Below, one piece after another: positions 7,080 through 31,045 of a stretch of 32,000 nt of DNA (positions within the stretch are counted from its first letter, which is position 1; each line of letters opens with the position of its first letter). Source of the DNA: Haloferax volcanii DS2 (GTDB taxonomy: Archaea; Halobacteriota; Halobacteria; Halobacteriales; Haloferacaceae). The notes under the pieces are model-generated. The model saw only the letters and a list, made by a program, of their open reading frames with translations, did not search any database and had not been told where the DNA came from. A program made the translations under genes and the position numbers. The stretch is taken from positions 540,001 to 572,000 of the forward strand of contig NC_013967.1 in NCBI RefSeq assembly GCF_000025685.1. The letters run 5' to 3'.

Positions 7080-7650
7080 CCGCCCTCCCGTTCGCGAGTT
7101 CGAGCGTCGTCCCGTCGTCGTCATCGACCACGACGCGCACCACGCAGTCGTTGCCGCTGTCCCACGCACCCGAGACGCTCACGGAGTCGGGGAGCGTCAC
7201 CGGGAGTCGCCGGTCGAACGCGTCGTTCGGATGGTCGAGGACGAGCGCCGGTGCGGTCACGTTCGGGTCGGTCGCGAGCGTGGCGTTCGGGACGTACGCG
7301 ATTCGGTAGGAACTCCCGCGAATCGCTCGCGGAAGCGCCGCGTCGACTCGTCTGGACCCGCGGACCGCCGACTCGGGGACGACGGCGGTCGTCTCGACCT
7401 GCTCCGTCGCCGCCGCGAGCGTTCTGTCGGCGAGTTCGTGACCGACCGCGGCGCGGTGGTCGGGGACGACGCCGCCGAACAGCACCGTCGTCAAGAGTCC
7501 GACGAACAGCACGACGATTGCGGCTTCGAGCGCCTTGCCGACGACGGGGACCACGGCGCGCTCGGCGGCCCGACCGCCGGTCCCGGGCGTCACCGGTCCG
7601 GAGTCGTCGGGGGCGACCGACGACGGCTCGGACGCGTCAGCCACGGTCAA
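7072..7650 (-). CDS. Pilin-like/accessory protein 2 with an N-terminal hydrophobic helix
   Basis: 192-aa ORF. The start is TTG 7650 or GTG 7644, both overlapping the upstream stop at 7637-7639. VVGKALEAAIVVLFVGLLTTVLFGG follows an acidic/Pro-rich leader. This is the least canonical signal of the five. Confidence 0.6.
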   Translation of the reverse strand: MTVADASEPSSVAPDDSGPVTPGTGGRAAERAVVPVVGKALEAAIVVLFVGLLTTVLFGGVVPDHRAAVGHELADRTLAAATEQVETTAVVPESAVRGSRRVDAALPRAIRGSSYRIAYVPNATLATDPNVTAPALVLDHPNDAFDRRLPVTLPDSVSVSGAWDSGNDCVVRVVVDDDDGTTLELANGRADA

Positions 7651-8350
7651 TCACCACCGAAACGTCGTATCGGGCGACCGTGAGCGTCCGCTCGTCGGGG
7701 ACGGTGGCGACGACGCTCTCGGTGCCGTCGCCGTCGAAGTCGGTTCGAGTCGTGTTGAAACCGCGGCGCTCGAACGCTCGCTCCCACGCGTCGGGGGTCG
7801 CCGTCTCGACGGCGACGGCGTACCCGTCGGCCGGGCGGTCGGTCACGGTTCGCGTCGTCTGCGTTCGGAGCGCCGCACCCGACCCGAGTCCACCGCCGTC
7901 GGTGGCATCGGCGGTCAGGACGGGAACCGTGAGAAACGCCGCGTCGCCGGCGAACGCCACCGGAACGGGCGTGACGAGCGCGGCGGAATCGCCGGTGCCG
8001 CGGACGACCGCGCCGCCGACGAACGCGACCCGATGGCCGCCGAGGTCGGCGACGTACCCGTCGGCGTCGTAGGTCCTGGTCGGCCTCGTCTCCGAGGTGA
8101 TTCGGACCGTCCTGTTCACCCGCGAGAGGTCGCCGTCGGTGACGCGAACCGGGTAGCTGTCGTTCGCGGCGGCGACGACGCCGTCTCGGAACGACGAGAA
8201 GCCGTCCGCGGCGGCGTCAGCGTCCGCACTCGCTATCTGGGCGTCCACGAGTCCGCCGACGCTGGCGGTCAGGAGACCGATGGCGACGACGCCGACGCCG
8301 AGCAGGAGCGCGACGCCGACGACGTTCGCCTGGCCGCGGGTGGCGCTCAT
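7637..8350 (-). CDS. Archaeal type IV pilin-like protein 1 (Pilin_N-type N-terminus)
   Basis: The track ORF is 7637-8383. ATG at 8348-8350 forms an ATGA overlap with the pilC stop. MSATRGQANVVGVALLLGVGVVAIGLL matches the archaeal pilin N-terminal pattern (R-G-Q plus a hydrophobic helix). Three N-X-S/T sequons. Confidence 0.8.
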   Translation of the reverse strand: MSATRGQANVVGVALLLGVGVVAIGLLTASVGGLVDAQIASADADAAADGFSSFRDGVVAAANDSYPVRVTDGDLSRVNRTVRITSETRPTRTYDADGYVADLGGHRVAFVGGAVVRGTGDSAALVTPVPVAFAGDAAFLTVPVLTADATDGGGLGSGAALRTQTTRTVTDRPADGYAVAVETATPDAWERAFERRGFNTTRTDFDGDGTESVVATVPDERTLTVARYDVSVVIDRG

Positions 8351-10266
8351 ATCAGGCCCACCCCGGCGTAGACGAGGTAGCACGCGACGACGAGCGCGGC
8401 GGAGTGGAGCAACGCCTCGTACCGACCGCGGCTCGCCGTGCCGGCGAACCAGCCGGAGGCGAGCATCGTCGCCTGCGTGACGACGTACATCCGGTAGCGG
8501 TCGCGTTCGAGGTCGACCGCGCCGGCGTTGATGGCGAACGACCTGCCGGTCGAGAGCGTCGAAAGCTGGGCGAAGCCGTCGAAGACGTGGACGTTGACGG
8601 CGACGGTGATTCCGACGACGAGGAGCGCGGTCGTCCAGCCGACCGCGACGTAGACGAGCAGCCCCGAGCGGAGCGCGCGCTTTTCGTGGTAGAGGCGGCC
8701 GATTTCGGTCTGGAGCGTGTCGAAGACGGTCCCGGTATCGCTGCCGCCGTCGAGCGCGCCGACGACGAGGCCGATGGTCTGTTCGGCCATGGGCGTCCCG
8801 ACGCGGTCGACGAACCGCGCCAACGCGGCCGTCCGGAGGTTCACGTCGGTGCCGGAGCTTGGCGCGGTAAAGCGGAGGTTGAGCGCGAGGTCGGCGACGT
8901 CCGCGTCGAGCGGGCCGAGGTCAACGTCGCGGCCGACGCGCTCGACCGCCTCACCGAAGGGTCGACCGAGGTTGACGTGACCGGAGACGGCGTGGACGAA
9001 ATCCTTCAGTTCGCGGTCCTTCGCGTCGTCCAGACGGGCGCGGCGGACGCCGACGAGTCCGACCGGGGCCGCGTAGGCGACGTAGCCGGCGAGTGCGACT
9101 CCCACGGCGTCGGCACCGACGAACGCGGCGACGCCGGCCACGACGAGCCCCGAGAAGACGAAGACGGCGGCCGCGCTGGCCGGGTTCGACAGCGTCGAGT
9201 CGAGGACGCGGAGCGCGCCGGCCGGCCGGTCGTACTCGACGGACTGGTCCGGGGGTCGGAGTCCGGCGACGAGCACGCTCGCGCCCAGCCCGACGCCGAC
9301 GATGAACGCGGCGCTCGAATAGACGACGACGCCGCGCGTGGTCGTCTGGCCGAGCGGCGTGGCAACCGGCGCGGAGAGGCCGGGCGCGATGACGCTCATC
9401 ACCGTGAGGACGATGACGAGCAACGAGGGGAGGACGAGCAGGACGATGAACAGTTCGGCGAGCAGTTCGAGGAAGCCCTCGGCGCGCTCGCGGGCGCGGT
9501 CCTGTCGGTGGCCGAGCATCCGGCTCTCCATCCGCAGGTAGTTCCGGAGCGCGTCGCTGCCCTGTCCGGCGTGTTCGCGGAACTTCAGGAGAAACGGCGC
9601 GAGCATCCCCTCGGAGGGCGTGTCGCGGGCGACGCGCCGCAGGCCCTCGTTCACGTTGCCGGTCAGCGAGGCGGTGTTGAGAACGCTCCGGAAGGCGATT
9701 GCCGTCTCGCCGTAGGCGTCGGTTTCAGCGACGCGGCGGAGCATCCCGCGAGGGCCGTCGCTCCCCGACGAGAGGACGTGCAGGTAGCGGACCGCGCCGG
9801 GCAGCGTTCGCTCGATGTTCTCTCGCCGCGCGGTCGCCAGCCAGCCGAGGTACTGCCCGGCGACGGCGAGGACGACACGCCGCGTCGCGACCGCGACCGC
9901 GAGTGCGAACGCCCCGACCACCGGAAGCCGCGGAACCACGGGTATCGGGACGTGTTCGAAAAGCGGGAGCGCCGCCCGAAGAACGTCGAGTACGGCGTCG
10001 ACCGTCGAATCCGGAACCGCGAGCGCGACGAGCGCCGTCGGGAACGCGACGAACAGACCGGTCGCCCACGCGAGGCCGTAGGCGCGGGCGAGATAGAGGT
10101 CGAAGCTCATCCGCATGTCGGTGCCGCGGTAGCGGCGGCGGTCCCGGTCGTGTCGCCCGGCGTCGACGTGGCGGGCGAACAGCGCGTACAGCGCCCTGTC
10201 GAGGACCGAAAGCGAGCGGACGCGGCCGACCCGTCGCTCGTCGGCTCCGGCGTCGAACTCGGTCAC
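8347..10266 (-). CDS. pilC: Type IV pilus/archaellum-type platform membrane protein (PilC/FlaJ/TadC, T2SS-F family)
   Basis: The track gives a 949-aa ORF (8347-11196), but its first ~310 codons are Arg/Pro-rich and overlap the ATPase gene in another frame. GTG at 10264-10266 overlaps the pilB stop (GTGA) and gives 639 aa. The product has two repeated cytoplasmic-domain-plus-TM-bundle halves, typical of the family. Confidence 0.88.
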   Translation of the reverse strand: MTEFDAGADERRVGRVRSLSVLDRALYALFARHVDAGRHDRDRRRYRGTDMRMSFDLYLARAYGLAWATGLFVAFPTALVALAVPDSTVDAVLDVLRAALPLFEHVPIPVVPRLPVVGAFALAVAVATRRVVLAVAGQYLGWLATARRENIERTLPGAVRYLHVLSSGSDGPRGMLRRVAETDAYGETAIAFRSVLNTASLTGNVNEGLRRVARDTPSEGMLAPFLLKFREHAGQGSDALRNYLRMESRMLGHRQDRARERAEGFLELLAELFIVLLVLPSLLVIVLTVMSVIAPGLSAPVATPLGQTTTRGVVVYSSAAFIVGVGLGASVLVAGLRPPDQSVEYDRPAGALRVLDSTLSNPASAAAVFVFSGLVVAGVAAFVGADAVGVALAGYVAYAAPVGLVGVRRARLDDAKDRELKDFVHAVSGHVNLGRPFGEAVERVGRDVDLGPLDADVADLALNLRFTAPSSGTDVNLRTAALARFVDRVGTPMAEQTIGLVVGALDGGSDTGTVFDTLQTEIGRLYHEKRALRSGLLVYVAVGWTTALLVVGITVAVNVHVFDGFAQLSTLSTGRSFAINAGAVDLERDRYRMYVVTQATMLASGWFAGTASRGRYEALLHSAALVVACYLVYAGVGLI

Positions 10267-12629
10267 GGGTCGGCCTCGTCGTCGCGGTCGCGGTGGTGGG
10301 TGTGGTCGTCCACCCCGCCTCGGGCGGCGCTGTCTCCGTCGGCCGAATCCCGCTCGGCCATCCGCCGGCGGACGCGCTCGACCGTCGCGGCCTCGTCGGT
10401 CCGGAGGTCCGAGAGGAAGCCGAACAGCCGGTCCACGTCGGTTATCTGCTCGCGGACGAGGTACTCCACGTAGCGATGTTTTCGGTGGAACTCGCGCTCG
10501 ACGGCCTCCACGTCGCGGTCGGTGGCCTCGGCGATGCGGTGGAACAGTCGGACGCCGACGCGCCGGTGGTCGTCGCCCAGCTGCGGGTGTTCGTACGAGA
10601 GATCGAACGAGCCGTCCGGGGTCCGGCGGCCGACCGTGTTCCAGTGGAGCGTGCGCCCGTCCTTCTCGATGACGCCGCGTCGACCCCACGTTTCGTCGTA
10701 CTCGGACTCGGGGACGAGTTCGACGACCTCGGAGACGTACCGCTCGCCGTCGACTTTGTGCGGGAAGACGACGAGGTCGAGTTCGCGGAGGAGGTACGGC
10801 GGGAGCCCCTGTTCGATGACGCGGTTGACGAGCGTCTCGATGTCGGCGGCGTGGGTCGTACCGATGACGCCGTGGCCGGTGTTGAGCGTCTCGGCGAAGG
10901 TGGCGAACGACTCGGGCGTGTTGATTTCGGCGATGACCTCCACGTCGGGGTTGAGGTAGTTCGCCTCCGTCATCAGGTCGGCCATCGTGACGCGCTTGAA
11001 CTCGGACTCGTGGTCGCGGGTCGTCAACGAAACGCCCGTCTCGTGGGGGAGATGGACCTCCCGGGAGCCCTCGTCGATGCTGATGGGCCGGTGGTCGTAG
11101 GGGACGAACGGCATGTGCGCGTTCATCAGCGTGGTTTTGCCGACGCCGGTCGCGCCGGAAAAGAGGACGACGCGGTGGTGTTCGTAACAGAGCCACAGCA
11201 GCGTGACGAGTTCGGTCGAGACCGACCCGCTTTCGACGAGGTCGACCGGCGTGAGCACGTCGCCGGTCTGCTTGCGAATCGAGACGTGCGGGCCGCCCTC
11301 GGAGATGACGGGGAGGGCGACGGCGCAGCGAATCGTCTCGTCGGTGTCGGCCGACGCGGGGTCGCCGCCGACCGCGCCGGGTCGGAGGTTCACCTTCGCG
11401 CTCGGGTTCGAGGCGTTCAGCTCCACGCCGTCGGCGGCGGCGAGTTGGGTCACGACGTTCGTGAACTCGGTCTCGTCTTCGAAGACGAGGTTCGTCGGCA
11501 CCCGCAGGCCGCCGTGGCCGGTCACGTCCGCCCGCGGAATGACTTTGATTCGTTCGCCGACACGGTTCGCTTCCACGTCTTCGAGATGGGGGTCACGGAT
11601 GGGAACGGTGAGGACGCCCTCGCCGACGTAGTCGCGGAGGACGTAGTAGACGAGGTCGTCGAGACGGTCCTCGGCGAACCGGCGGTCGACCGGCGGGAGC
11701 GCGAGACCGTACTCCGAGAGCGCGGCGCGGACCCGGAAGCTCGTGGCGTCGACCCACGCTCGGGTGTTGCGGGCGGTGAGCCGCCGCGAGAGGAACTCGC
11801 GGGCCCGGTCGCGGACGAACTCGATGCGGTCGGCGACCACGTCGTTGACGTTCGCCTCCCAGATTCGCTCTTTGCACTCCTCGATGAGTTCGGCGTCGCC
11901 GGGAACCAGGTCCGGTTCGAGGACGGCGTACTTCGTGGCGAAGCGGTCGTCGCCGAGGAGTCGGTCGCGGTAGATTACCACGTCCACGTCGTAGCCGGCG
12001 AAGGGGACGGTGTAGTGGTCGATTCGCTCGGCGGCGATGCGGTCGGCGAACGACACGTCGGAGTCGAACGTCGTCGTCGCCGGCGCGAAGTCCTCGGTGT
12101 GGACGACGAGTCGCTCGGAGCCGTCGCCGCGGCCGGCGTCGACGACTTCGATTCTATCGTCGAGCGCCAGCGGTGTGACTGCACCGAGGAGCCGAAGTTC
12201 GGACAGCGCGTGGCGCTCGACGCGTCTCCGGGCGGTCGGCGTCAGGTCGAGCAGCCGGTCGAAGATACGGCGGTACTTCGGTGAGAGTCCGGTCTCTGCG
12301 CGGCTGACCGCGCCCTCGCGGGTGAGCGGTCGCCGGCGGACGACCGTCGAAAAGTGGTCGCGGACGGTCTCCAGCGCGTCGGTCTCGCGCGCGCCGAGCG
12401 TCGCTTCTCGCACCGCGTAGTCGAAACCGTGGTCCGCGTCGCTGATGGTGACGACGGTATCGGGGGCGACTTCGTACTGCGAGCGGACGGTCGGCGCGTA
12501 CCACGCGCGAGGGTCGTCCGGGGGGACGGGTGCCGGGACTGCACCTGCCGCCCCGGAAGTCGAGGATGCACCGAATTCGAGAGTCGGGGTGGGCGACTCC
12601 GACCCGGCGTTATCGCCTTGGGTAGGCAT
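10263..12629 (-). CDS. pilB: Type II/IV secretion-family ATPase (PilB/FlaI-like)
   Basis: 788 aa. Walker A FSGATGVGKTT (nt 11130-11156). Asp/Glu box NPDVEVIAEINTPES. His box TGHGVIGTTHA. Long N-terminal domain and acidic C-terminal tail. ATG at 12627-12629. Confidence 0.92.
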   Translation of the reverse strand: MPTQGDNAGSESPTPTLEFGASSTSGAAGAVPAPVPPDDPRAWYAPTVRSQYEVAPDTVVTISDADHGFDYAVREATLGARETDALETVRDHFSTVVRRRPLTREGAVSRAETGLSPKYRRIFDRLLDLTPTARRRVERHALSELRLLGAVTPLALDDRIEVVDAGRGDGSERLVVHTEDFAPATTTFDSDVSFADRIAAERIDHYTVPFAGYDVDVVIYRDRLLGDDRFATKYAVLEPDLVPGDAELIEECKERIWEANVNDVVADRIEFVRDRAREFLSRRLTARNTRAWVDATSFRVRAALSEYGLALPPVDRRFAEDRLDDLVYYVLRDYVGEGVLTVPIRDPHLEDVEANRVGERIKVIPRADVTGHGGLRVPTNLVFEDETEFTNVVTQLAAADGVELNASNPSAKVNLRPGAVGGDPASADTDETIRCAVALPVISEGGPHVSIRKQTGDVLTPVDLVESGSVSTELVTLLWLCYEHHRVVLFSGATGVGKTTLMNAHMPFVPYDHRPISIDEGSREVHLPHETGVSLTTRDHESEFKRVTMADLMTEANYLNPDVEVIAEINTPESFATFAETLNTGHGVIGTTHAADIETLVNRVIEQGLPPYLLRELDLVVFPHKVDGERYVSEVVELVPESEYDETWGRRGVIEKDGRTLHWNTVGRRTPDGSFDLSYEHPQLGDDHRRVGVRLFHRIAEATDRDVEAVEREFHRKHRYVEYLVREQITDVDRLFGFLSDLRTDEAATVERVRRRMAERDSADGDSAARGGVDDHTHHRDRDDEADP

Positions 12630-12850: not shown

Positions 12851-14638
12851 TCACTCGCTTCGAACCGCCTGGATGCGAAGCACCACTTCGGTCCCGCCCT
12901 CCTCGCGGCGATGGAACACGACCGTCCCGCCGAGCTGGTCGACGCCCCACTTCACCAGCCAGAGGCCGAGGCCGCTCGCGTGTCGAAGTTGCGTCTCGCC
13001 GTGGGCGTCGATGGCGGCGAGTTCGCTCGCGTTGATGCCGGGGCCGTTGTCCTCGATTCGAATCACGAGTTCGTCGTCCTCCCAGCCCGCCGTCACGGAG
13101 ACGACCGGCGTCGACGACCCGTTGTGTTGGACGCCGTTTTCGACGAGTTCGCGGACGATTGGTTCGAGCGTGGGCGCACAGACCACGTCGCGGTCGGGGA
13201 GTTCGACGAGTCGGACGTTCGCACAGGCGAAGTCGGTGCGGACGGCGTCCGCGGCGGCGCGTATCTGGACGGCCGCGGGGTGCAGTTGCACGTCGCCGTT
13301 CCCGTCGCTGCCGCGGGTCACACCGAGCTTTCGCGCTTTCTGGCTGATGTTGACGAGCGTTTTCGCGTGGTCTTGGAGCGTCTTCGCGTGGTCCCGCGCG
13401 TCGTCGAACTCGCCGCCGTCGATGTCGTCCAAGACGAGGTTGGCGTAGCCTTCGAGGAGGTTCGCTTCGGTCCGAAGATTGTGGCGGAGGACGCGGTTCA
13501 TCACTTCGAGCTGTTGGAGGTTCAGCCGGCGGTCGGTCACGTCGCGGAAGACGAGCGCGTGGCCGATGTCGCGGCCGTGGTGGTCGCAGAAGGCGCTCGT
13601 CCGGAGTTCGAAGTACCGCTGGCTCGACCCGAGTCTGACCGTGACTTGGTCCGTGTCCCGCTGGTCGGGCGAGAACTCATCGATAACGTCGCCGACGGGG
13701 CGGCCTTTGAGCTCGTCCGCGGTGTCGTTCAGAACCCGCGCGGCCGCCCGGTTCACGTCGGTGACGCGCCACTTGGTGTCGGTGACGACCACCGCGTCGG
13801 CCATCGTCTCGACGACGCGCTCGCGGGCGACCCAGCGGGGGACCGGTCGGGATTCGAGGAGCTCGTAGCGGCTGATAGCGACGGTGCAGGCGAGCCCCGC
13901 AAACGTGAACGCCGCGGGCGTCATGTCGATTGCCGCGCCGTACAGTTCGAGGAGCGTCGTGGCGAAGTTCCCGAGCACGGGCATCAGCGTCCCGAGGACG
14001 AGCGTGATCGCCTGTAACCGGTAGATGTCCGGCATATCGAGCGCCGTTCGGAGGATAACGACCGCGCCAGCGAGCCACAGCAGATAGCTGTATCCCAGTA
14101 CGACCCAGTACAGCGGCCCCCACTCCATCTGGAGGATGGTGATGGCCCGGCCGACCGCGGGAACGACGGTGACTGACGTCCACATCAGGTGGTGGAGAGA
14201 GTTGGTCCAGACGGCGCCGAGGCCGATTACCGGGAGCACCGAGAGGACGCAAAGCGACGGCCGAGCGGTGAATCGGTCCCGGCCGGCGTAGGAGAACGCG
14301 AAGAAGAACCAGGCGATGGGTGCCACGAGCACGCCGACCCACTGGAGGTCAGCGAGCGTGAGCTTGAGTGCCACGTCCGCGACGATGAGTTCGAGGAGGT
14401 AGCCCGACGACCACCACCCGCTGGCGAGGGCGAGCACGCCCAGCCCGATAGCCCCGGGCATCGACCGCCGTTGCCACGCGAACAGGGCGACGTAGCCGCT
14501 TACGACGCCGGACGTGACCATCAGCCCGATGATGATGACCACGAGGGAAACCGGCTGCGTGAGTAGCTGGGGACCGACCGCACCTCCGAACACCAACTGT
14601 TCGACGGCCCTCCACTCGATGTTCGGAGTCACTACCAC
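12851..14638 (-). CDS. Membrane sensor histidine kinase (N-terminal 7TM sensor, PAS, HisKA-like H-box, HATPase_c)
   Basis: 595 aa. Seven hydrophobic segments in the first ~215 aa. PAS region (VVVTDTKWRVTDVNRAAARVL...). H-box NRVLRHNLRTEAN. ATP-binding motifs ELVENGVQHN, DNGPGI, GLGLWLVKW. The start is GTG 14636-14638; a downstream start is possible because a TATA-like TATAATTA (minus strand) abuts it. Confidence 0.88.
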   Translation of the reverse strand: MVVTPNIEWRAVEQLVFGGAVGPQLLTQPVSLVVIIIGLMVTSGVVSGYVALFAWQRRSMPGAIGLGVLALASGWWSSGYLLELIVADVALKLTLADLQWVGVLVAPIAWFFFAFSYAGRDRFTARPSLCVLSVLPVIGLGAVWTNSLHHLMWTSVTVVPAVGRAITILQMEWGPLYWVVLGYSYLLWLAGAVVILRTALDMPDIYRLQAITLVLGTLMPVLGNFATTLLELYGAAIDMTPAAFTFAGLACTVAISRYELLESRPVPRWVARERVVETMADAVVVTDTKWRVTDVNRAAARVLNDTADELKGRPVGDVIDEFSPDQRDTDQVTVRLGSSQRYFELRTSAFCDHHGRDIGHALVFRDVTDRRLNLQQLEVMNRVLRHNLRTEANLLEGYANLVLDDIDGGEFDDARDHAKTLQDHAKTLVNISQKARKLGVTRGSDGNGDVQLHPAAVQIRAAADAVRTDFACANVRLVELPDRDVVCAPTLEPIVRELVENGVQHNGSSTPVVSVTAGWEDDELVIRIEDNGPGINASELAAIDAHGETQLRHASGLGLWLVKWGVDQLGGTVVFHRREEGGTEVVLRIQAVRSE

Positions 14639-24603: not shown

Positions 24604-24999
24604 GTGTCCGCGCCACCGGACCCGACGGACGCGGCGTCGCCCCCCGTGCTCGAACGGGCGGCGACTCGCCTCCGACTCGTCGGCACGGCGGCCCTCGCGG
24701 GCGCGCTCGCCGTCGCCGTCTGGCTGGTCGCTCGGCTGGTCGTCGGTGACTTCTCGGCGAGCGTCGAGACGACGTTCGCGGTCGGCTCGCTCGCGTTCGG
24801 GTTCGGGCTCCTCGGCTGGTCCGGGGCGGTCGCGCTCGGTCGCGGCATCGAGTCGATGCAGGCGCACCTCGACACCGGGGCGGGCTGGACGGAAGCGGAC
24901 GCTCGCCGGGCGATGGCCCGAGTTCTCGGGTTCGGACTCGGCGTGATGCTCGGGGCGACGGCGGTCGGTTCGGTCGCCTCTGTTTTCGTCGCCGCCTGA
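24604..24999 (+). CDS. Small hydrophobic protein (three predicted TM helices), unknown function
   Basis: 131-aa ORF with a GTG start 7 nt after the permease stop. High GC3. Three Ala/Gly/Leu/Val-rich segments. No recognisable motif. Confidence 0.5.
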   Translation: MSAPPDPTDAASPPVLERAATRLRLVGTAALAGALAVAVWLVARLVVGDFSASVETTFAVGSLAFGFGLLGWSGAVALGRGIESMQAHLDTGAGWTEADARRAMARVLGFGLGVMLGATAVGSVASVFVAA

Positions 25000-25022: not shown

Positions 25023-27614
25023 TCAGGCTTTCGGCAGGCGAAGCTCGATAATCGTCCCGCTCGGTTCGTTGTCTCTGATTTCCATCGTGCCGTTGCTGTT
25101 CGTCACCGTCCAGCGGACGAACCAGAGACCGAGCCCGTTCGTGTGCCGAAGCGGCGACTCCCGCCCGGACATGAGCGATTCGCGTTCGAGCGCGGGGAGC
25201 CCCGGCCCGTTGTCCGCGATTCGAACCGTCACTTGCTCCGCACCGTCGGCCTCGGCGACAGAGAGTTCGATTTCGACGTCGTCACCGCCGTAGGCGACGG
25301 CGTTGTCGACGAGTTCGTTCACCGCGAGTTCGAACGTCGCGTGCGCCAACGCTCGCACGTTCTCCGGCGCGTCGACGGTGATGGTCACCCCGGGGTAGCT
25401 GAGCTGAGCGCCTTCGACCACGCTGCGGACGCGGTCGGCAACGTTCTGCGGTTGCACCCGCTCGGTCACGTCGGGGTCGAGCGCGGAGCTGAACTTTCGT
25501 GCCGTCTCGGCGATTGAGAGGAGTTCGTCCGCCGCCCGCTCGATGGCCGCCGCCGACTCGCGCACGTCGGCGTCGTCGGCGGCTTCGAGCAGCATCGCCG
25601 CGTGCGCCTGCGCGATGTTCATCTTGTTCCGGAGGTTGTGTCTGATGACGCGGTCGAGGACCGAAAGCCGCCGCTCGCGCTCCCGGAGTTCGGTCACGTC
25701 GCGGCCGACGCAGACGATGCCGTCGAACTCGCCGCCCGACGACTTCGCCGCGATGGTCGTCTGGAACTGTCGCTCAGCGCCGCCTCGGTCGACGACGACC
25801 GTCTCGATGGTCTCCTCGGCGCTATCCCCCGAGAGAAGCGACGCGATAGCCTCTAAGAGCGCCTGGGCGTGTCGCTCGCCGAACACCGCCGAGACGTGTT
25901 CGCCCGTGAGTTCGCCGGGGTCACAGTCCAGCAGGTCGGCGGTCGCGCTGTTCGCGAGGACGAACCGGAGATTGTCGTCGAGCGTGTGAATCGGGTCGGC
26001 CGTCGTCTCGACGATGCGCTCGTACCGCTCTAACTCCTCGGAGCGGGCCTTTCGCTCGGTGATGTCTTGGACGGTCCCGCGGTAGACGGCGGCGTCGGTC
26101 TCTCGCGCCGCGACGCCGCGGACGTTCACCCAGCGCGTCTCGCCGTCCATCGTCTCCAGTCGGCACTCGACTGACTGCTCTTCCCCGGTCGCAACGAGAC
26201 GTCCGAACGCCGCCCGGGCCTCGGGTTCGTCCTCGGGATGGTAGAACGCGAACGCCTCTTCGAGGTCGAAGGTCTCCCGCGAATCGACGCCGACGAGTTC
26301 CGCGAGTCCGCTCGTGAACAGGACCTCCCCGGTCCGTGTGTTGAACTCCCACGCGCCGACCGAGGCGATTTTCTGACTCTGGTCGAACAGGTCGAGCAGT
26401 CGTTCGCGGTCGCGCTGCTGGCGCTTCACTTCGGTCACGTCCTCGATGACGGCAATCACACCGATGCACTCCCCGCCGCTTCCAGTCAGGGACGCGGCGT
26501 TGACGACGACCCACCGGCGGTCGCCGCCGACTTCGATGCCGTGTTCGAAGCCCTTGACGGTCTCACCGGCCTCTCTCGCCCGTTCGAAGGGGAGCCCACC
26601 GCGGTCGAGTGGCTCTCCGCGCTCGCCGACGAGTTCCCACTCGGGGGCGTCGTACGGCTGTCCGAGCACGACTGACCGGCCCAGACCGAGAATCTCTTGG
26701 GCCGACTCGTTGGCGCGCATGATTATCTCGTCTTCGTTGAGGACCACGATACCGACCGGACTCGTCTCGAAGAGCTGTTTGAGCGTTTGCGTCTCGTTGA
26801 CGAGTTGGTTCCTGAGCGCGTGGCGGACGGTCGCGTCGGTCTGGAACCCGACGAAGTGGGTGAGCTCCCCGTCGTCGTAGACCGGCGATATCTTCAGGTC
26901 GTTCCAGAACGGCGTTCCGTCCTTCCGGTAGTTCGTGAGGCCGACGGCGGCGCTCTCGCCAGCGTCGACCGCCTCGTGGAGCGTCTCGACCGCCTCGGGG
27001 TCGGTGTCGTCCCCTTGGAGGAATCGACAGTTCCGGCCGATGACCTCCGAGCGGTCGTAGCCGGTCATCTCCTCGAAGGCGTCGTTGACGTACGTGAGCG
27101 GTTGGTCGTCGTCGGCTTCGGTGATGGTGATGCCGACCGTCGCGCTGTCCATCGCCCGGCGGTACAGCGCGAGTTGGAGCGACTGCCGTCGGGTCTGGAG
27201 AAGCGACTCGACCCGCGACCGGATGACTGCGCTCGGTGCGGGGACCGCGAGCACGTCGTCCGGCACGTCGTCGAGTCGCCGTGCGGCGACGCGCTGTTCG
27301 TCTTGCGTGACCGTCAACAGCACCGGCACGAAGCGGTCGCCGGCGTCGGCTTTGCGTTCGTCGAGCGCGTCGGCAACCGCCGAGTACGTCGCCATATCGA
27401 CGATACAGAGGTCGAACTCCGGAAGTTGGGGTTCATCCTCGCGGCCGCGTTCCCAGACGACGACTTCGTGCGCGTCGAGGAGGCCCGCCAGTAGCTCGCG
27501 GTCCCGAGCGCCGCGAACCGCGAGGAGTATCCGTTCCTCGTCGGACGCGTCACGCGCGGAGCGCGCTCCGTTCCGGGACGCGTCTTCGCTCACGGTCACT
27601 CGGCCTCGTTCCAC
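25023..27614 (-). CDS. Multi-domain sensor histidine kinase: receiver-like domain, LOV-type PAS, three further PAS domains, H-box, HATPase_c
   Basis: 863 aa. LOV signature GRNCRFLQG with the Cys codon at 27027-27029. Further PAS S-box-like segments. H-box DRVIRHNLRNKMN. ATP-binding motifs NELVDNAVAYGG, DNGPGLP, GLGLWFVRW. The start is GTG 27612-27614, or GTG 27597-27599 (GTGA overlap with the upstream stop). Confidence 0.9.
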   Translation of the reverse strand: MERGRVTVSEDASRNGARSARDASDEERILLAVRGARDRELLAGLLDAHEVVVWERGREDEPQLPEFDLCIVDMATYSAVADALDERKADAGDRFVPVLLTVTQDEQRVAARRLDDVPDDVLAVPAPSAVIRSRVESLLQTRRQSLQLALYRRAMDSATVGITITEADDDQPLTYVNDAFEEMTGYDRSEVIGRNCRFLQGDDTDPEAVETLHEAVDAGESAAVGLTNYRKDGTPFWNDLKISPVYDDGELTHFVGFQTDATVRHALRNQLVNETQTLKQLFETSPVGIVVLNEDEIIMRANESAQEILGLGRSVVLGQPYDAPEWELVGERGEPLDRGGLPFERAREAGETVKGFEHGIEVGGDRRWVVVNAASLTGSGGECIGVIAVIEDVTEVKRQQRDRERLLDLFDQSQKIASVGAWEFNTRTGEVLFTSGLAELVGVDSRETFDLEEAFAFYHPEDEPEARAAFGRLVATGEEQSVECRLETMDGETRWVNVRGVAARETDAAVYRGTVQDITERKARSEELERYERIVETTADPIHTLDDNLRFVLANSATADLLDCDPGELTGEHVSAVFGERHAQALLEAIASLLSGDSAEETIETVVVDRGGAERQFQTTIAAKSSGGEFDGIVCVGRDVTELRERERRLSVLDRVIRHNLRNKMNIAQAHAAMLLEAADDADVRESAAAIERAADELLSIAETARKFSSALDPDVTERVQPQNVADRVRSVVEGAQLSYPGVTITVDAPENVRALAHATFELAVNELVDNAVAYGGDDVEIELSVAEADGAEQVTVRIADNGPGLPALERESLMSGRESPLRHTNGLGLWFVRWTVTNSNGTMEIRDNEPSGTIIELRLPKA

Positions 27615-29050
27615 GTCGGCGTCCCCGTGAGGATGCCCCGTAGCTCGTCGAGCGGTTCGCCGACGGTGATGCCGTCCCTCCCGATTTCGAACGACCGGAG
27701 CGTCGGCTCGAAGCCGCCGAACCGCTTTTTGAGGACGCCGACGGCCTTGCGAATCTCGCCGCGCACCTCGATGTAGCGGATGAACAGGATGTTGTCCGCG
27801 AGGTAGCTCACGTGGTTGTCCGAGGCGTGGAACGCGCCGGTGACCTGCTGTACCTCCTCGGTCAGCACGACGGTGACGCCCATGTTCTTGAGGTACCGCG
27901 CCAGCGCGTGGAGTTCGCGGCGGATGTCGCTCCGCTCGTCGGTAAGGCTGAGTTGGTAGCCCGCGGTACCGTCTATCAGCACGAATTTGGTGTCGTTGGC
28001 TTCGACCTCGGCGCGCACCCGCTGGGCGAACTCGTCGGTCGAAAGCGAGAGCGGTTCGACGGCGTCGACCCGGAGGTTCCCGGAGTCGACGAGATCGTCT
28101 ATCGGGATGCCGACGGACTCGGAGCGGTGTCGGAAGCTCCGTTTGCTCTCCTCGAACAGATAGACTGCGGCGCGCTCGCCGCGTTCGGCGGTCGCCCGCG
28201 CGAACGCGGCTCCGGTGGTGGACTTACCGACGCCGCTCGGGCCGCTGACGAGCGTGATGCTCCCCCGCTCGATGCCGCCGCCGAGCAGGGCGTCGAGGTC
28301 GTCGATGCCCGACGAGAGCGGCTCGATAGTGAACTCGTGGTGGTGCGAGTCGGGGACGAGCCGCGGGAAGACGCGCATCCCGTGACCGCCGTCGATTCGC
28401 ATGGCGTGCGGCCCCGTCTGCGAGTCCGAGCCGCGGAACTTCTCGATGCGGACCGACCGCCCCCAATCGGACCGAGACAGCGATATCGACCCGTCGCAGA
28501 GGTACGCGAGCGTCTCGTCGGTGCCGCCGCTCGACGGCTGGCTCGTGAACAGCGTCGTCGCACCCGACCGCTTGAGATAGCTCAGGAGCGACGAGACGAG
28601 CCGGCGGAACTGGTATTCGTCCGACGAGAGCCGACCGAGTTGGCTCAGCGGGTCGATGACGACTCTGTCGGGGTGGTGTTCTTCGATTACCTCTTTCAGT
28701 TCGGTCGTCGTGGATTTCCCTTCGACCTCGCTCGGCGACAGCATCGTGTAGGCCTCGTCGTCGAGGAACGCCTCGGGCGACGGGCTTAGGTCGAGAACCG
28801 GCACCTCGGAGAGGTCGAACCCGAGCGTTCCGGCGTTCGCCCGGAGGTCGGCGTTCGACTCCTCGAAGGAGATGAACAGCACGTCCTCGTCGTTTTCGCG
28901 CCCGGCGGTCAAGAAGTGGTAGCCGGCGATGGCCTTTCCCGCCCCGGATTCTCCGCGGACCATGTACGTTCGGTTCGGCACTAGCCCGCCGTCTAGTACC
29001 GCGTCGAGTCCGGAGACTCCCGTGGAGAGTCGCGGGGGGAGATTCGTCAT
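27596..29050 (-). CDS. KaiC-like double-domain RecA-superfamily ATPase
   Basis: The track ORF is 27596-29161; ATG 29048-29050 (MTNLPPRLSTGVSGLD...) is preferred, giving 484 aa. Two KaiC-type domains: LSTGVSGLDAVLDGG...GESGAGKA...ISFEES and LSSGIDDLDALLGGG...GPSGVGKST...YLFEES. Confidence 0.9.
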   Translation of the reverse strand: MTNLPPRLSTGVSGLDAVLDGGLVPNRTYMVRGESGAGKAIAGYHFLTAGRENDEDVLFISFEESNADLRANAGTLGFDLSEVPVLDLSPSPEAFLDDEAYTMLSPSEVEGKSTTTELKEVIEEHHPDRVVIDPLSQLGRLSSDEYQFRRLVSSLLSYLKRSGATTLFTSQPSSGGTDETLAYLCDGSISLSRSDWGRSVRIEKFRGSDSQTGPHAMRIDGGHGMRVFPRLVPDSHHHEFTIEPLSSGIDDLDALLGGGIERGSITLVSGPSGVGKSTTGAAFARATAERGERAAVYLFEESKRSFRHRSESVGIPIDDLVDSGNLRVDAVEPLSLSTDEFAQRVRAEVEANDTKFVLIDGTAGYQLSLTDERSDIRRELHALARYLKNMGVTVVLTEEVQQVTGAFHASDNHVSYLADNILFIRYIEVRGEIRKAVGVLKKRFGGFEPTLRSFEIGRDGITVGEPLDELRGILTGTPTWNEAE

Positions 29051-29112
29051 ACCGTACACATCTGTCCGGCGCACCAAGAAACTACCACCGCCTCGAACTG
29101 CCGCGTCTCGGA

Positions 29113-29153
29113 GCATCACATCCCGGGCACCACGCCCGGAGCACCACATCCCG
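29113..29153. repeat. 13-bp direct repeat GCA(T/C)CACATCCCG x2 flanking the hairpin CCGGGC-ACCAC-GCCCGG
   Basis: Copies at 29113-29125 and 29141-29153 match at 12 of 13 positions. They lie 63-103 nt upstream of the kaiC-like ATG, within the orc1-kaiC spacer. Confidence 0.3.
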
Positions 29154-29202
29154 TGACACACTACCTCGGCACGCCGATTCGGGGGACTGCGTCGCCGTGG
29201 GG

Positions 29203-30429
29203 TCAGGCGGCCTCGGCCTGCGTCGCGGTCTTCCGAATCTCGTCGAGGACCGAGTCGAGAGCGAGCACGTCGGACAGCGCCTCCATCGCGCTGGAGAACG
29301 GCACGTCGAGCGCGTAGCTGTAATAGTTCCCGCGCGAACCGGTTCGGTTCTCCTCGGCCGAGAGGATGCCGAGCATCCGGAGGTCCGAGAGGTGGTTGTG
29401 GACCGACCGCTGGGCGAGCGGGTCGATGCCGGCGGAGTTACACAGTCGGAGGTACTCCTGATAGAGGTCGCGCATCCGACACGGCGTCTCGTCGTGGGCG
29501 GCCTTCGAGACGACCGCGAGGAGGGCGAAGTGGCCGTTTTCGGTGAGTTCGCGCATCCCCTCGACGACGCGCTCCTGTTCGAGTTTCTGCCGGGCGATGT
29601 CGACGTGGTCGAGCGTGATTCGCTCGTCGTCTTTGTTCTCGGCGTGTTCGCCCGCCAGCCGCAGGAGGTCGAGCGCCTGCCGCGCGCTCCCGCTGTCGCG
29701 GGCGGCGAGCGCCGCACAGAGGTTGAGCACGCCCTCCTCGCAGGCGTCTTCTGCGATGGCGACCTCAGCGCGCGATTCGAGGATGTTCTGGAGCTCAGGC
29801 GCTTGGTACGGCGGGAAGTGGAGTTCGCGCTCGCAGAGCGTGTCCTGCACGCGCGGGTCGAGTTGGTCGTGGAACTTGAAGTCGTTCGAGATGCCGATGA
29901 GGCCGACCTTGGCGTCTTCGAGCTTGCCGTTCGAGCGCGCCCGCGGGAGTTCGTAGAGGAGCTCGTCGCGGTCGCCGATGGAGTCGACTTCGTCGAGGAC
30001 GATGAGCACCGTCCCGCCCACGTCGTCCAACTCCTGAAACAACTTCTTGAAGACGGTCTGTTGGGGGTAGCCGGTCGAGCTAATCACCGCACCGGGCGGC
30101 CGAAGCTCGTTGACGAGTTCGACCGCCACCTGATACGAGGAGTTGAGCGTCTTGCAGTTGATGGAGATGACGCTGAGGTCCACGTCGTCGTACTGCGAGA
30201 CATCTTCGAGGAGCATTTCCAGAAGGAACTCGGTGACTGCGGTCTTCCCCACGCCGGTGTTTCCGTACAGGAAGACGTTGTTCGGCTCCCAGCCGTCGAC
30301 GACCGGTTGGAGCGCGTCCATGTACTCCGAAATCTCGTCGTCGCGCTCCTCGATGCGCTCGGGCTTGTAGGACTCCCCGAGGGCGTCCTTGTTGGTGAAG
30401 ACGTTTTGTTTTCGCTCGAACCGGCGCAT
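29203..30429 (-). CDS. orc1: Orc1/Cdc6 family replication initiator
   Basis: 408 aa. AAA+ Walker A GNTGVGKTA and Walker B LIVLDEVD. Typical N-terminus (FTNKDALGESYKPERIEERDDEI) and a C-terminal winged-helix region (NHLSDLRMLGIL). Confidence 0.93.
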   Translation of the reverse strand: MRRFERKQNVFTNKDALGESYKPERIEERDDEISEYMDALQPVVDGWEPNNVFLYGNTGVGKTAVTEFLLEMLLEDVSQYDDVDLSVISINCKTLNSSYQVAVELVNELRPPGAVISSTGYPQQTVFKKLFQELDDVGGTVLIVLDEVDSIGDRDELLYELPRARSNGKLEDAKVGLIGISNDFKFHDQLDPRVQDTLCERELHFPPYQAPELQNILESRAEVAIAEDACEEGVLNLCAALAARDSGSARQALDLLRLAGEHAENKDDERITLDHVDIARQKLEQERVVEGMRELTENGHFALLAVVSKAAHDETPCRMRDLYQEYLRLCNSAGIDPLAQRSVHNHLSDLRMLGILSAEENRTGSRGNYYSYALDVPFSSAMEALSDVLALDSVLDEIRKTATQAEAA

Positions 30430-30620: not shown

Positions 30621-30650
30621 GAACAGACACACACCATGTTTGCAAGTGAA
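30621..30650 (-). repeat. ORB-like repeat, inverted copy (TTCACTTGCAAACATGGTGTGTGTCTGTTC)
   Basis: Matches the copy at 30958-30984 at 22 of the first 23 positions. Confidence 0.7.
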
Positions 30651-30790
30651 AGAGAGTACGCGAGAGTAGCTAGTAGAACAACAGAGCATGTGTTCAACTA
30701 AAGCGTTGACATATTTCGGTGCTCACGGTGTACGTCTCGGTGGGATGCGTCTCCCGTTAACGAGGCGTAGACGGCCTCAATCGGAGTGAA

Positions 30791-30812
30791 TCACCTGCAA
30801 TGGTGGTGGGTG
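30791..30812 (+). repeat. ORB-like repeat R1 (TCACCTGCAATGGTGGTGGGTG)
   Basis: Shares the core and G-string with R3 and R4. The first T of the core is replaced. Confidence 0.6.
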
Positions 30813-30836
30813 ACGCGCGACGAGTCCCGTTCGAGG

Positions 30837-30855
30837 TTCACTTGCACCGGTGCTC
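30837..30855 (+). repeat. ORB-like repeat R2, degenerate (TTCACTTGCACCGGTGCTC)
   Basis: The core TTCACTTGCA is conserved; the G-string is lost. Confidence 0.45.
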
Positions 30856-30901
30856 TCCCCGCGCAGTCGCCGGTCCCACCCCCTCCGCGGCGTCACCGCG
30901 C

Positions 30902-30930
30902 TTCACGTGCAACGGTGGTGTCTGTGGGTA
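30902..30930 (+). repeat. ORB-like repeat R3 (TTCACGTGCAACGGTGGTGTCTGTGGGTA)
   Basis: Core plus G/T-string. Confidence 0.65.
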
Positions 30931-30957
30931 CGCCGCGACCCATCGCTTCCCCGCCAA

Positions 30958-30984
30958 TTCACTTGCAAACGTGGTGTGTGGGTG
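30958..30984 (+). repeat. ORB-like repeat R4 (TTCACTTGCAAACGTGGTGTGTGGGTG)
   Basis: Best copy; mirror of 30621-30650. Confidence 0.7.
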
Positions 30985-31021
30985 TCGGACCGCGGCTTTC
31001 GCGTTCCGCCGCGGCGACCCA

Positions 31022-31045
31022 TTCACTTGTACGGCCGGTCTGTCC
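31022..31045 (+). repeat. ORB-like repeat R5, degenerate (TTCACTTGTACGGCCGGTCTGTCC)
   Basis: Only the core TTCACTTG is retained. Confidence 0.4.

Follow-up and report, generated by a model that had tools for sequence, protein, structure and literature searches.

The cirC locus

We analyzed a 32,000-nucleotide stretch of the chromosome of Haloferax volcanii DS2 (positions 540,001 to 572,000 of NC_013967.1; hereafter, the window), and in particular a pair of adjacent minus-strand genes that encode the KaiC-like ATPase CirC and a large sensor histidine kinase. An earlier note on this stretch, made from the sequence alone, had placed these two genes beside an orc gene and an origin. Open reading frames and Pfam matches delimit three minus-strand genes in the region: an Orc1/Cdc6 gene, a 484-amino-acid ATPase, and the kinase (Table 1). 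The limits of the ATPase and the kinase agree with those in the note. An exact-sequence look-up returned the DS2 proteins ADE04877.1 (orc), ADE02759.1 (ATPase), and ADE03168.1 (kinase).

The ATPase gene is cirC: both of the published quantitative PCR primers for cirC match it exactly. Maniscalco et al. (2014; PMC3941300) named four KaiC homologues in H. volcanii, of which cirC is the sole one with two sets of Walker A and Walker B motifs. They gave its neighbors as "fixL" and orc2, and they reported that cirC transcript levels depend on light and dark. Their cirC is the same gene, with a protein identical in sequence to that of DS2. Thus, the core arrangement (cirC, kinase, and orc2) was already published in 2014 and is not new as the note presented it. 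That study treated the neighbor of cirC as the oxygen sensor FixL, and it described no LOV domain, no pseudo-receiver (PsR), no conservation of the pair, and no P-loop change specific to DS2, all four of which are described here. What is new is that the partner is a LOV kinase, that there is a family of KaiC-linked pseudo-receivers, and that the first P-loop carries a change found only in DS2.

CirC matches the KaiC family of Pfam (PF06745, E = 3.5e-72) in two stretches, which correspond to two tandem RecA-like KaiC domains. Its top relatives of solved structure are all KaiC proteins, aligned over their full length (E = 1e-44 to 1e-61). In contrast, models for RadA, RadB, and RecA score just 20 to 70 bits against CirC, which is far below their own cutoffs and below KaiC, and so we rejected a role as a RadA/RecA-type repair protein. 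In these respects the earlier note was right: the ATPase groups with KaiC and not with RadA or RecA, and its two KaiC domains, with their P-loops and Glu-Glu pairs, are borne out by Pfam and by checking the coordinates.

CirC also departs from the KaiC of the cyanobacterial clock. It falls below the cutoffs of both NCBIfam equivalog models for KaiC (PRK09302 and TIGR02655: 268 versus 408 bits and 166 versus 546 bits), and it ends about 35 residues short of the C terminus of KaiC, without the A-loop tail for binding KaiA. At the positions of the KaiC phosphosites, Ser415 and Tyr416 are both invariant in 19 CirC orthologues, so that the position of Thr432 is occupied by Tyr. At this locus, there is no room for kaiA or kaiB between or beside the two genes (152 nucleotides upstream and at most 2 nucleotides downstream). 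Judging from these sequence features, CirC is KaiC-like but is not a clock KaiC.

The note had also pointed out that the first P-loop of CirC reads GESGAGKA, with Ala where Ser or Thr usually follows the Lys, and had suggested that the N-terminal domain might be nonhydrolytic. The motif is truly present, but the idea that it is a design feature does not hold up: of 134 homologues, 126 have Thr after this Lys, 5 have Ser, and just 1, the DS2 protein, has Ala (the motif was not matched in the remaining two). All Haloferax sequences apart from that of DS2 have Thr. The DS2 sequence of cirC was found on 260 contigs, so a single sequencing error is unlikely. By this comparison, the Ala arose in the laboratory lineage by a change of one nucleotide, from ACC to GCC, and is not a trait of the family. 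DS2 may carry a weakened allele of cirC, and the substitution could weaken or mask phenotypes in past and future knockout work.

Where the kinase begins affects how the two genes are joined. There are three in-frame GTG candidates, and GenBank uses the middle one (27599), which gives a GTGA overlap with the stop codon of cirC. The note had considered the GTGs at 27614 and 27599, both of which overlap cirC, and had concluded that the genes are translationally coupled. Those two codons exist and the genes do abut, but comparison favors the third GTG (27593), and the word "coupled" hangs on an uncertain start. In Halobaculum, Haloarcula, Haloglomus, Natronomonas, and Halopenitus, the kinase starts with ATG or GTG 2 to 5 nucleotides past the kaiC stop; also, the products begin with MSDE in Halobaculum and Natronomonas, and a start at GTG 27593 would give MSED. 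Because the kinases of these five genera start past the stop, and because MSED resembles MSDE, a 2-nucleotide spacer seems at least as likely as an overlap. Whichever start holds, cirC and the kinase leave no room for a separate promoter, and translational coupling of the two is plausible. Upstream of cirC, the presumed promoter region has a TTTCTT stretch near −30 and TA at −11/−10, as judged by eye only.

Table 1. Features of the cirC locus, in coordinates of the window
Feature	Coordinates	Strand	Basis
cirC, double-domain KaiC-like ATPase, 484 amino acids, ADE02759.1; ATG at 29050	27596..29050	-	Pfam, exact match, primers, solved KaiC structures
CirC N-terminal (CI-like) RecA/KaiC domain, amino acids 9-230	28361..29026	-	Best Pfam stretch
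CI Walker A, GESGAGKA; Ala40 codon GCC at 28931-28933	28931..28954	-	Read directly
CI catalytic Glu-Glu pair, E63 and E64	28859..28864	-	Invariant in 19 orthologues
CirC C-terminal (CII-like) RecA/KaiC domain, amino acids 245-480	27611..28318	-	Second KaiC stretch, AAA_25 match, alignment to KaiC CII
CII Walker A, GPSGVGKS; G270, P271, G273, V274, G275, and K276 invariant in 19 orthologues	28220..28243	-	
CII catalytic Glu-Glu pair, E300 and E301	28148..28153	-	Invariant in 19 orthologues
Ser415-Tyr416, aligned to KaiC phosphosites Ser431-Thr432	27803..27808	-	HVSYLAD versus HISTITD
Junction: cirC stop TGA 27596-27598; in-frame kinase GTG candidates 27614, 27599, and 27593	27591..27614	-	Sequence read
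Sensor histidine kinase, 858 amino acids, ADE03168.1 (PsR, LOV, three PAS, DHp, HATPase_c)	25023..27599	-	Pfam, NCBIfam, exact-sequence look-up
N-terminal PsR, amino acids 20-145; proposed KaiC-coupling module	27165..27542	-	Profile, AlphaFold2, Foldseek, linkage
LOV domain, amino acids 146-260; adduct Cys191 codon 27027-27029	26820..27164	-	Motif, solved LOV kinases, Foldseek
Three further PAS domains	25680..26756	-	Pfam PAS_7, PAS_3, PAS_4
DHp/H-box, VIRHNLRNK, with phospho-acceptor His	25488..25649	-	Weak HisKA match, E = 0.006
HATPase_c catalytic domain	25029..25331	-	Pfam, E = 1.5e-14
Spacer, 152 nucleotides, orc2 stop to cirC ATG; presumed cirC promoter	29051..29202	-	Sequence read
orc2 (HVO_0634); context, not part of the module	29203..30429	-	Cdc6 lid and winged-helix domains; coordinate match
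Origin recognition box (ORB)-like repeats of the orc2-associated origin; context	30631..31041	.	Four direct copies and one inverted copy

Domains of the cirC-linked kinase

A Pfam search with the N-terminal 150 amino acids of the kinase gave no family at a threshold as permissive as E = 10, and the domain that they contain was previously unrecognized; the earlier note overlooked it as well. A profile built from 16 of these domains matches receiver domains of solved structure, with a PleD entry as the best match (E = 1e-15). Both receiver domains of PleD align to it, and the second gives the stronger stretch. Residues that are invariant in the alignment of the PsR include an FDxC motif, D103, P109, R118, and R126 (alignment numbering). 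The AlphaFold2 model of the domain (predicted local distance difference test score of 90.6 and predicted template modeling [TM] score of 0.87) has the (beta-alpha)5 fold, with a loop in place of helix alpha2, and Foldseek aligns it to the receivers of PhoB, CpxR, PmrA, and FixJ with TM scores of 0.7 to 0.78.

A word-indexed protein search with the 145-residue stretch (27165-27599) gave no hit, not even the kinase itself, so short, divergent domains can escape that kind of search; an exhaustive HMMER search with the N-terminal domain yielded 309 cluster representatives. We scanned 95 of 150 representatives of the family with Pfam: the receiver model matched anywhere in the protein in just 5 of the 95, which means that it misses the domain in at least 90. 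Among 167 members, and using CheY numbering, the equivalent of the Mg-binding D12 is never acidic, D13 is acidic in 44%, D57 is kept in 96%, the T87 position is Thr or Ser in 41%, and the K109 position is Lys in just 4. Because the D12 equivalent is never acidic and Lys109 is so rarely kept, we call the domain a pseudo-receiver: the N-terminal 145 or so residues of the kinase are predicted to be a divergent receiver-like domain without the catalytic D12 and Lys. Across the family, the PsR is constant and N-terminal while the outputs vary (plain kinase, PAS-kinase, GGDEF, PAS-GAF-HD, EAL, or HTH). This is the pattern expected of an input domain that docks to a partner.

The PsR is followed by a LOV domain, and in the AlphaFold2 model, one continuous helix of 30 residues leads from alpha5 of the PsR into the LOV domain. 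The note had recognized a canonical LOV domain here, and the analysis confirms it. The domain has the motif GRNCRFLQG, with the Cys that forms the adduct; it matches solved LOV kinases with E of about 1e-33 and is 40 to 57% identical to solved LOV domains; and its AlphaFold2 model superimposes on LOV structures with a Foldseek target TM score of about 0.9 and a root mean square deviation of 0.6 to 0.9 Å. It also matches the YtvA-family and LOV-kinase models of NCBIfam. In 39 orthologues of the kinase, the flavin-site residues (N190, C191, R192, Q195, N223, R225, N233, and Q253) are at least 90% conserved, as is the RHNLRNK motif of the H-box.

By these signatures, the neighbor of cirC is a canonical LOV blue-light histidine kinase and not an oxygen sensor. 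The label "fixL" is misleading, because the first PAS domain of the protein is a canonical LOV domain. One Haloferax orthologue of the kinase is already named "Blue-light photoreceptor" in the database. The literature library that we searched contained no paper connecting KaiC with a LOV protein in haloarchaea.

In some orthologous PsR-LOV kinases, the adduct Cys is replaced by His (GENHRFLQG or GRNHRFLQG). Examples are found in locus L010 (about 7090-7440), in the kinase gene at 7461-9284 of locus L053, and in protein P0337. Such LOV variants may signal in a way that needs no Cys adduct, or they may be blind.

Linkage of the pseudo-receiver to kaiC

Searches with tblastn placed the PsR stretch beside kaiC genes of the cirC type in archaea as well as in bacteria, and the association holds in both directions. 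Starting from kaiC, 41 of 43 loci (at least 40% identity and with enough flanking sequence) have a PsR gene beside kaiC. The 41 loci come from Halobacteria, Cyanobacteria, Chloroflexi, Armatimonadota, Gemmatimonadota, Longimicrobium, Terriglobia, Methylococcaceae, Halanaerobium, and Marinobacter. Starting from the PsR alone, we fetched 80 metagenomic loci. All 73 that could be tested have a cirC-type kaiC next door, a result that describes a bacterial subclade, as the query was six bacterial PsR sequences; the other 7 loci had less than 630 bp upstream. Three further haloarchaeal PsR-LOV kinases (from Halobellus, Halorientalis, and Salinirubellus) also lie beside a double-domain kaiC (3 of 3). 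As a single negative control, a LOV kinase from Halobaculum rubrum that has no PsR has no kaiC nearby.

The PsR gene lies either downstream of kaiC on the same strand or in divergent orientation, as in Halorubrum. The adjacency of kaiC and kinase that the note had described is conserved: in six further genomes, the kinase abuts kaiC, 2 to 5 nucleotides apart or with a 4-nucleotide overlap, and the genes are adjacent in most of the other loci. The identity matrices of KaiC and PsR are strongly correlated (r = 0.93 across 94 pairs; Mantel p ≤ 0.001), which shows that the two are inherited together but does not prove that they are in contact.

Haloarchaeal CirC proteins are 44 to 50% identical to their homologues from Cyanobacteria, Chloroflexi, and other bacteria (loci L001 to L053). 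In the matrix used for the correlation above, the mean identity is 0.48 between archaea and bacteria versus 0.49 among archaea. These values suggest transfer of the whole cassette between the two domains of life, and bacteria and haloarchaea have probably exchanged the two genes together.

Several other observations concern these loci. In bacteria, a gene of about 120 amino acids often lies between kaiC and the PsR gene, and it encodes a near-canonical single-domain receiver in which the Asp, the Ser, and the Lys-Pro are kept (for example, L008 9428-9800, L015 9438-9800, L056 4636-5000, and many of L054 to L133). Haloarchaeal modules do not have this gene. In Halorubrum sp. N11 (L031 9549-12871), two consecutive PsR-PAS-kinase genes lie downstream of one kaiC. 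One kaiC copy is on a 2-kb contig that was binned as Methanobacterium (L012). We also considered whether kaiC and the kinase are fused in L001 and L025, and we rejected this: the long open frames are out of frame with kaiC.

Upstream of cirC, the note had placed orc1. There is indeed an Orc1/Cdc6 gene 152 nucleotides upstream of the ATPase, but it is orc2 (HVO_0634), which the genome paper places at 569203-570429 of the chromosome. The ORB array that the note had reported near the pair is present as well: the consensus TTCACNTGCAANNGTGGTGT has five matches, versus 0.03 expected. A low-GC stretch lies upstream of orc2, at 30.4-30.8 kb, and is bracketed by a 28-nucleotide inverted pair (30623-30650 and 30958-30985) that includes an ORB-like element. 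Next come four more direct ORB-like copies, about 60 nucleotides apart.

The order of orc, cirC, kinase, DUF7268, and dpp is kept in Haloferax prahovense. We found no orc gene near the pair in Halobaculum, Haloarcula, Haloglomus, Natronomonas, Halopenitus, Halobellus, Halorientalis, or Salinirubellus, nor near the other archaeal and bacterial kaiC loci that we sampled. On this comparison, the adjacency to orc is specific to Haloferax and looks like an accident of synteny.

On the other side of the pair, the small DUF7268 gene (24604-24999, plus strand) is convergent with the kinase and lies 23 nucleotides from its stop codon; its counterpart in H. prahovense is at L134 9049-9462. Farther away in the window are a second, unrelated sensor kinase with a seven-transmembrane region, PAS, and HATPase_c (12851-14638, minus strand) and, adjoining it, a gene for a 788-amino-acid ATPase of the type II/IV secretion family (10263-12629, minus strand).

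Signaling model, alternatives, and related systems

The cirC locus is a two-gene signaling operon and not a replication or repair element. With moderate confidence, we propose that it encodes a two-protein module in which the state of CirC and blue light converge on one kinase by way of the PsR. Beyond the domain content, gene linkage, and co-inheritance that we observed, we infer physical contact between the two proteins, a response to light, and a direction of signaling. The N-terminal PsR of the kinase would read the CirC oligomer, much as SasA docks on KaiC through its N-terminal adaptor domain. Because the last helix of the PsR is predicted to run unbroken into the LOV domain, the state of CirC (its bound nucleotide or its phosphorylation) and blue light could act on the same helical spine. 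Both inputs would then set the autophosphorylation of the kinase and, through it, signaling to a response regulator encoded elsewhere: as the earlier note had said, none is encoded nearby, and across the whole window we found none besides the receiver-like domain of the kinase itself. Alternatively, signaling could flow toward CirC, which light and the kinase would tune in the way that KaiA tunes KaiC.

A broader proposal, which we put forward tentatively, is that the PsR is the dedicated KaiC-docking domain of an ancient cassette that is shared by bacteria and haloarchaea and is independent of KaiA and KaiB; that the LOV domain was captured in haloarchaea; and that CirC and the kinase form a minimal light-gated timer or hourglass. 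If so, a photoreceptor and a KaiC protein would for the first time be linked directly, at the molecular level, in Archaea. Questions of timekeeping in archaea, and of the role of their many KaiC homologues, can be addressed in H. volcanii, the genetic model. The cir genes have been reported to follow light/dark cycles, and no light sensor had previously been connected to them. As the PsR tracks the cirC-type subfamily of KaiC across two domains of life, it gives experiments two particular proteins and one well-defined interface to work on.

Several points weigh against convergence on the kinase through a docking PsR. The phospho-acceptor Asp (D57) is kept in 96% of the PsR domains, so some unusual phosphorylation of the PsR may occur. 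Haladaptatus (L004) and a metagenome-assembled genome from Haloferacaceae (L037) have a cirC-type kaiC but no PsR. The N terminus by which a Pseudomonas kinase binds KaiC (see below) is described as PAS, and the proteobacterial kaiC loci (35 to 37% identity) have no PsR, so the PsR is not a universal adaptor. Any two genes that are linked should show correlated distances. Ala in the CI P-loop may also impair the module in DS2, the strain on which genetic work is done. Finally, part of the linkage between PsR and kaiC may already be described in the literature.

The alternative that fares best, although we think it unlikely, is that the signal flows the other way: light acts through the LOV domain to change the PsR, which modulates the ATPase activity or phosphorylation of CirC, and the output of the kinase is secondary. 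In the cyanobacterial clock, KaiA and CikA both carry pseudo-receivers, that of KaiA is N-terminal, and KaiA acts on KaiC. In our kinase the PsR is N-terminal and next to the sensor domains, and the expression of cirC depends on light (PMC3941300). The conserved linkage fits either direction. However, the output enzymes to which the PsR is joined are many and diverse, which fits flow from KaiC to an output, and many PsR proteins consist of just PsR, HisKA, and HATPase, with no separate sensor whose signal could be relayed to KaiC.

Another possibility, which we consider less probable still, is that CirC and the kinase are transcribed together but do not touch: the N-terminal domain would be the ordinary phosphorelay receiver of a hybrid kinase, and kaiC would be in the operon for co-expression. 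The high conservation of the phospho-acceptor Asp is consistent with this, as are the matches of the PsR profile to genuine receivers and the small near-canonical receiver protein that bacterial modules also encode. However, the substitution of the D12 and K109 equivalents and the failure of Pfam's receiver model to find the domain argue against an ordinary receiver. Also, near-obligate linkage across phyla in three arrangements (overlapping or adjacent, with one gene between, or divergent) is hard to explain by co-expression alone.

It is very improbable that CirC is the core of a self-sustained circadian oscillator that is entrained by the LOV kinase. CirC does resemble such a core in being a double-domain KaiC with both Glu-Glu pairs and a conserved Ser at the position of S431, and diurnal changes in cir transcripts have been reported (PMC3941300). 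Against this, there is no place for kaiA or kaiB at the locus, the A-loop tail is missing, Thr432 is replaced by an invariant Tyr, and CirC scores below both KaiC equivalog cutoffs. Furthermore, the related KaiC2 of Leptolyngbya boryana showed no autophosphorylation (PMC11680916), and what PMC3941300 reported was expression under light/dark cycles. Least credible of all is the link to replication that the note had floated, in which CirC and the kinase time or license the firing of the neighboring orc2 origin: it has in its favor only position (orc2 ends 152 nucleotides upstream of the pair, and the ORB repeats are about 1.6 kb away) and the synteny kept in H. prahovense, whereas no orc lies near the pair in the eight other haloarchaeal genera or at the other kaiC loci sampled, and the pair is also found in bacteria, which have no Orc, so we rejected it for want of conserved synteny.

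How does the proposed convergence of CirC and light on the kinase compare with known systems? It resembles the KaiC/SasA pair of cyanobacteria: in both, if docking occurs as we propose, a double-domain KaiC is read through an N-terminal adaptor of a kinase whose output goes to a response regulator. The adaptors differ, as that of SasA has a KaiB-like thioredoxin fold and that of our kinase is receiver-like. The CirC module also differs in that there is no KaiA or KaiB at the locus, no A-loop tail, and no Thr432, and in that the kinase has its own photoreceptor. Pseudo-receivers have precedents in CikA and KaiA, whose receiver-fold domains lack the residues for phosphotransfer and work inside KaiC complexes. 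However, the pseudo-receiver of CikA is C-terminal and binds KaiB on KaiC, while the PsR is N-terminal, and the pseudo-receiver of KaiA is not its KaiC-binding part, unlike the role that we propose for the PsR. Our profile search against solved structures, in which the PleD entry was the best match, gave no specific sequence relationship between the PsR and the pseudo-receivers of CikA or KaiA.

In Pseudomonas, kaiC is nearly always next to a histidine kinase, and KaiC binds the neighboring kinase, for which the N-terminal 138 residues of the kinase suffice (Terrettaz et al., bioRxiv 10.1101/2022.01.26.477890). That locus shares a small gene for a single-domain receiver with the bacterial members of the PsR-kaiC family. 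The Pseudomonas system has no photoreceptor, whereas the kinase here has a LOV domain. KaiC2 of L. boryana is a nonclock paralogue that is 25.7% identical to KaiC of Synechococcus elongatus; its kinase gene begins 3 nucleotides past its stop codon; and the protein is multimeric, its ATPase activity is low, and no autophosphorylation was detected (PMC11680916). It likely belongs to the same subfamily as CirC, whose cyanobacterial members are 44 to 48% identical to CirC, with KaiC2 itself compared by its description. No LOV domain was reported for the kinase of L. boryana KaiC2, in contrast to the kinase of H. volcanii.

Among photoreceptors, the LOV histidine kinase of Brucella, EL346 of Erythrobacter, and YtvA-type proteins have the same LOV core and motif as the kinase described here, and the Brucella protein has the same order of LOV, PAS, and kinase domains. 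The bacterial LOV histidine kinases begin with their LOV domain, whereas in the kinase of H. volcanii, a PsR precedes the LOV domain and a KaiC gene is attached.

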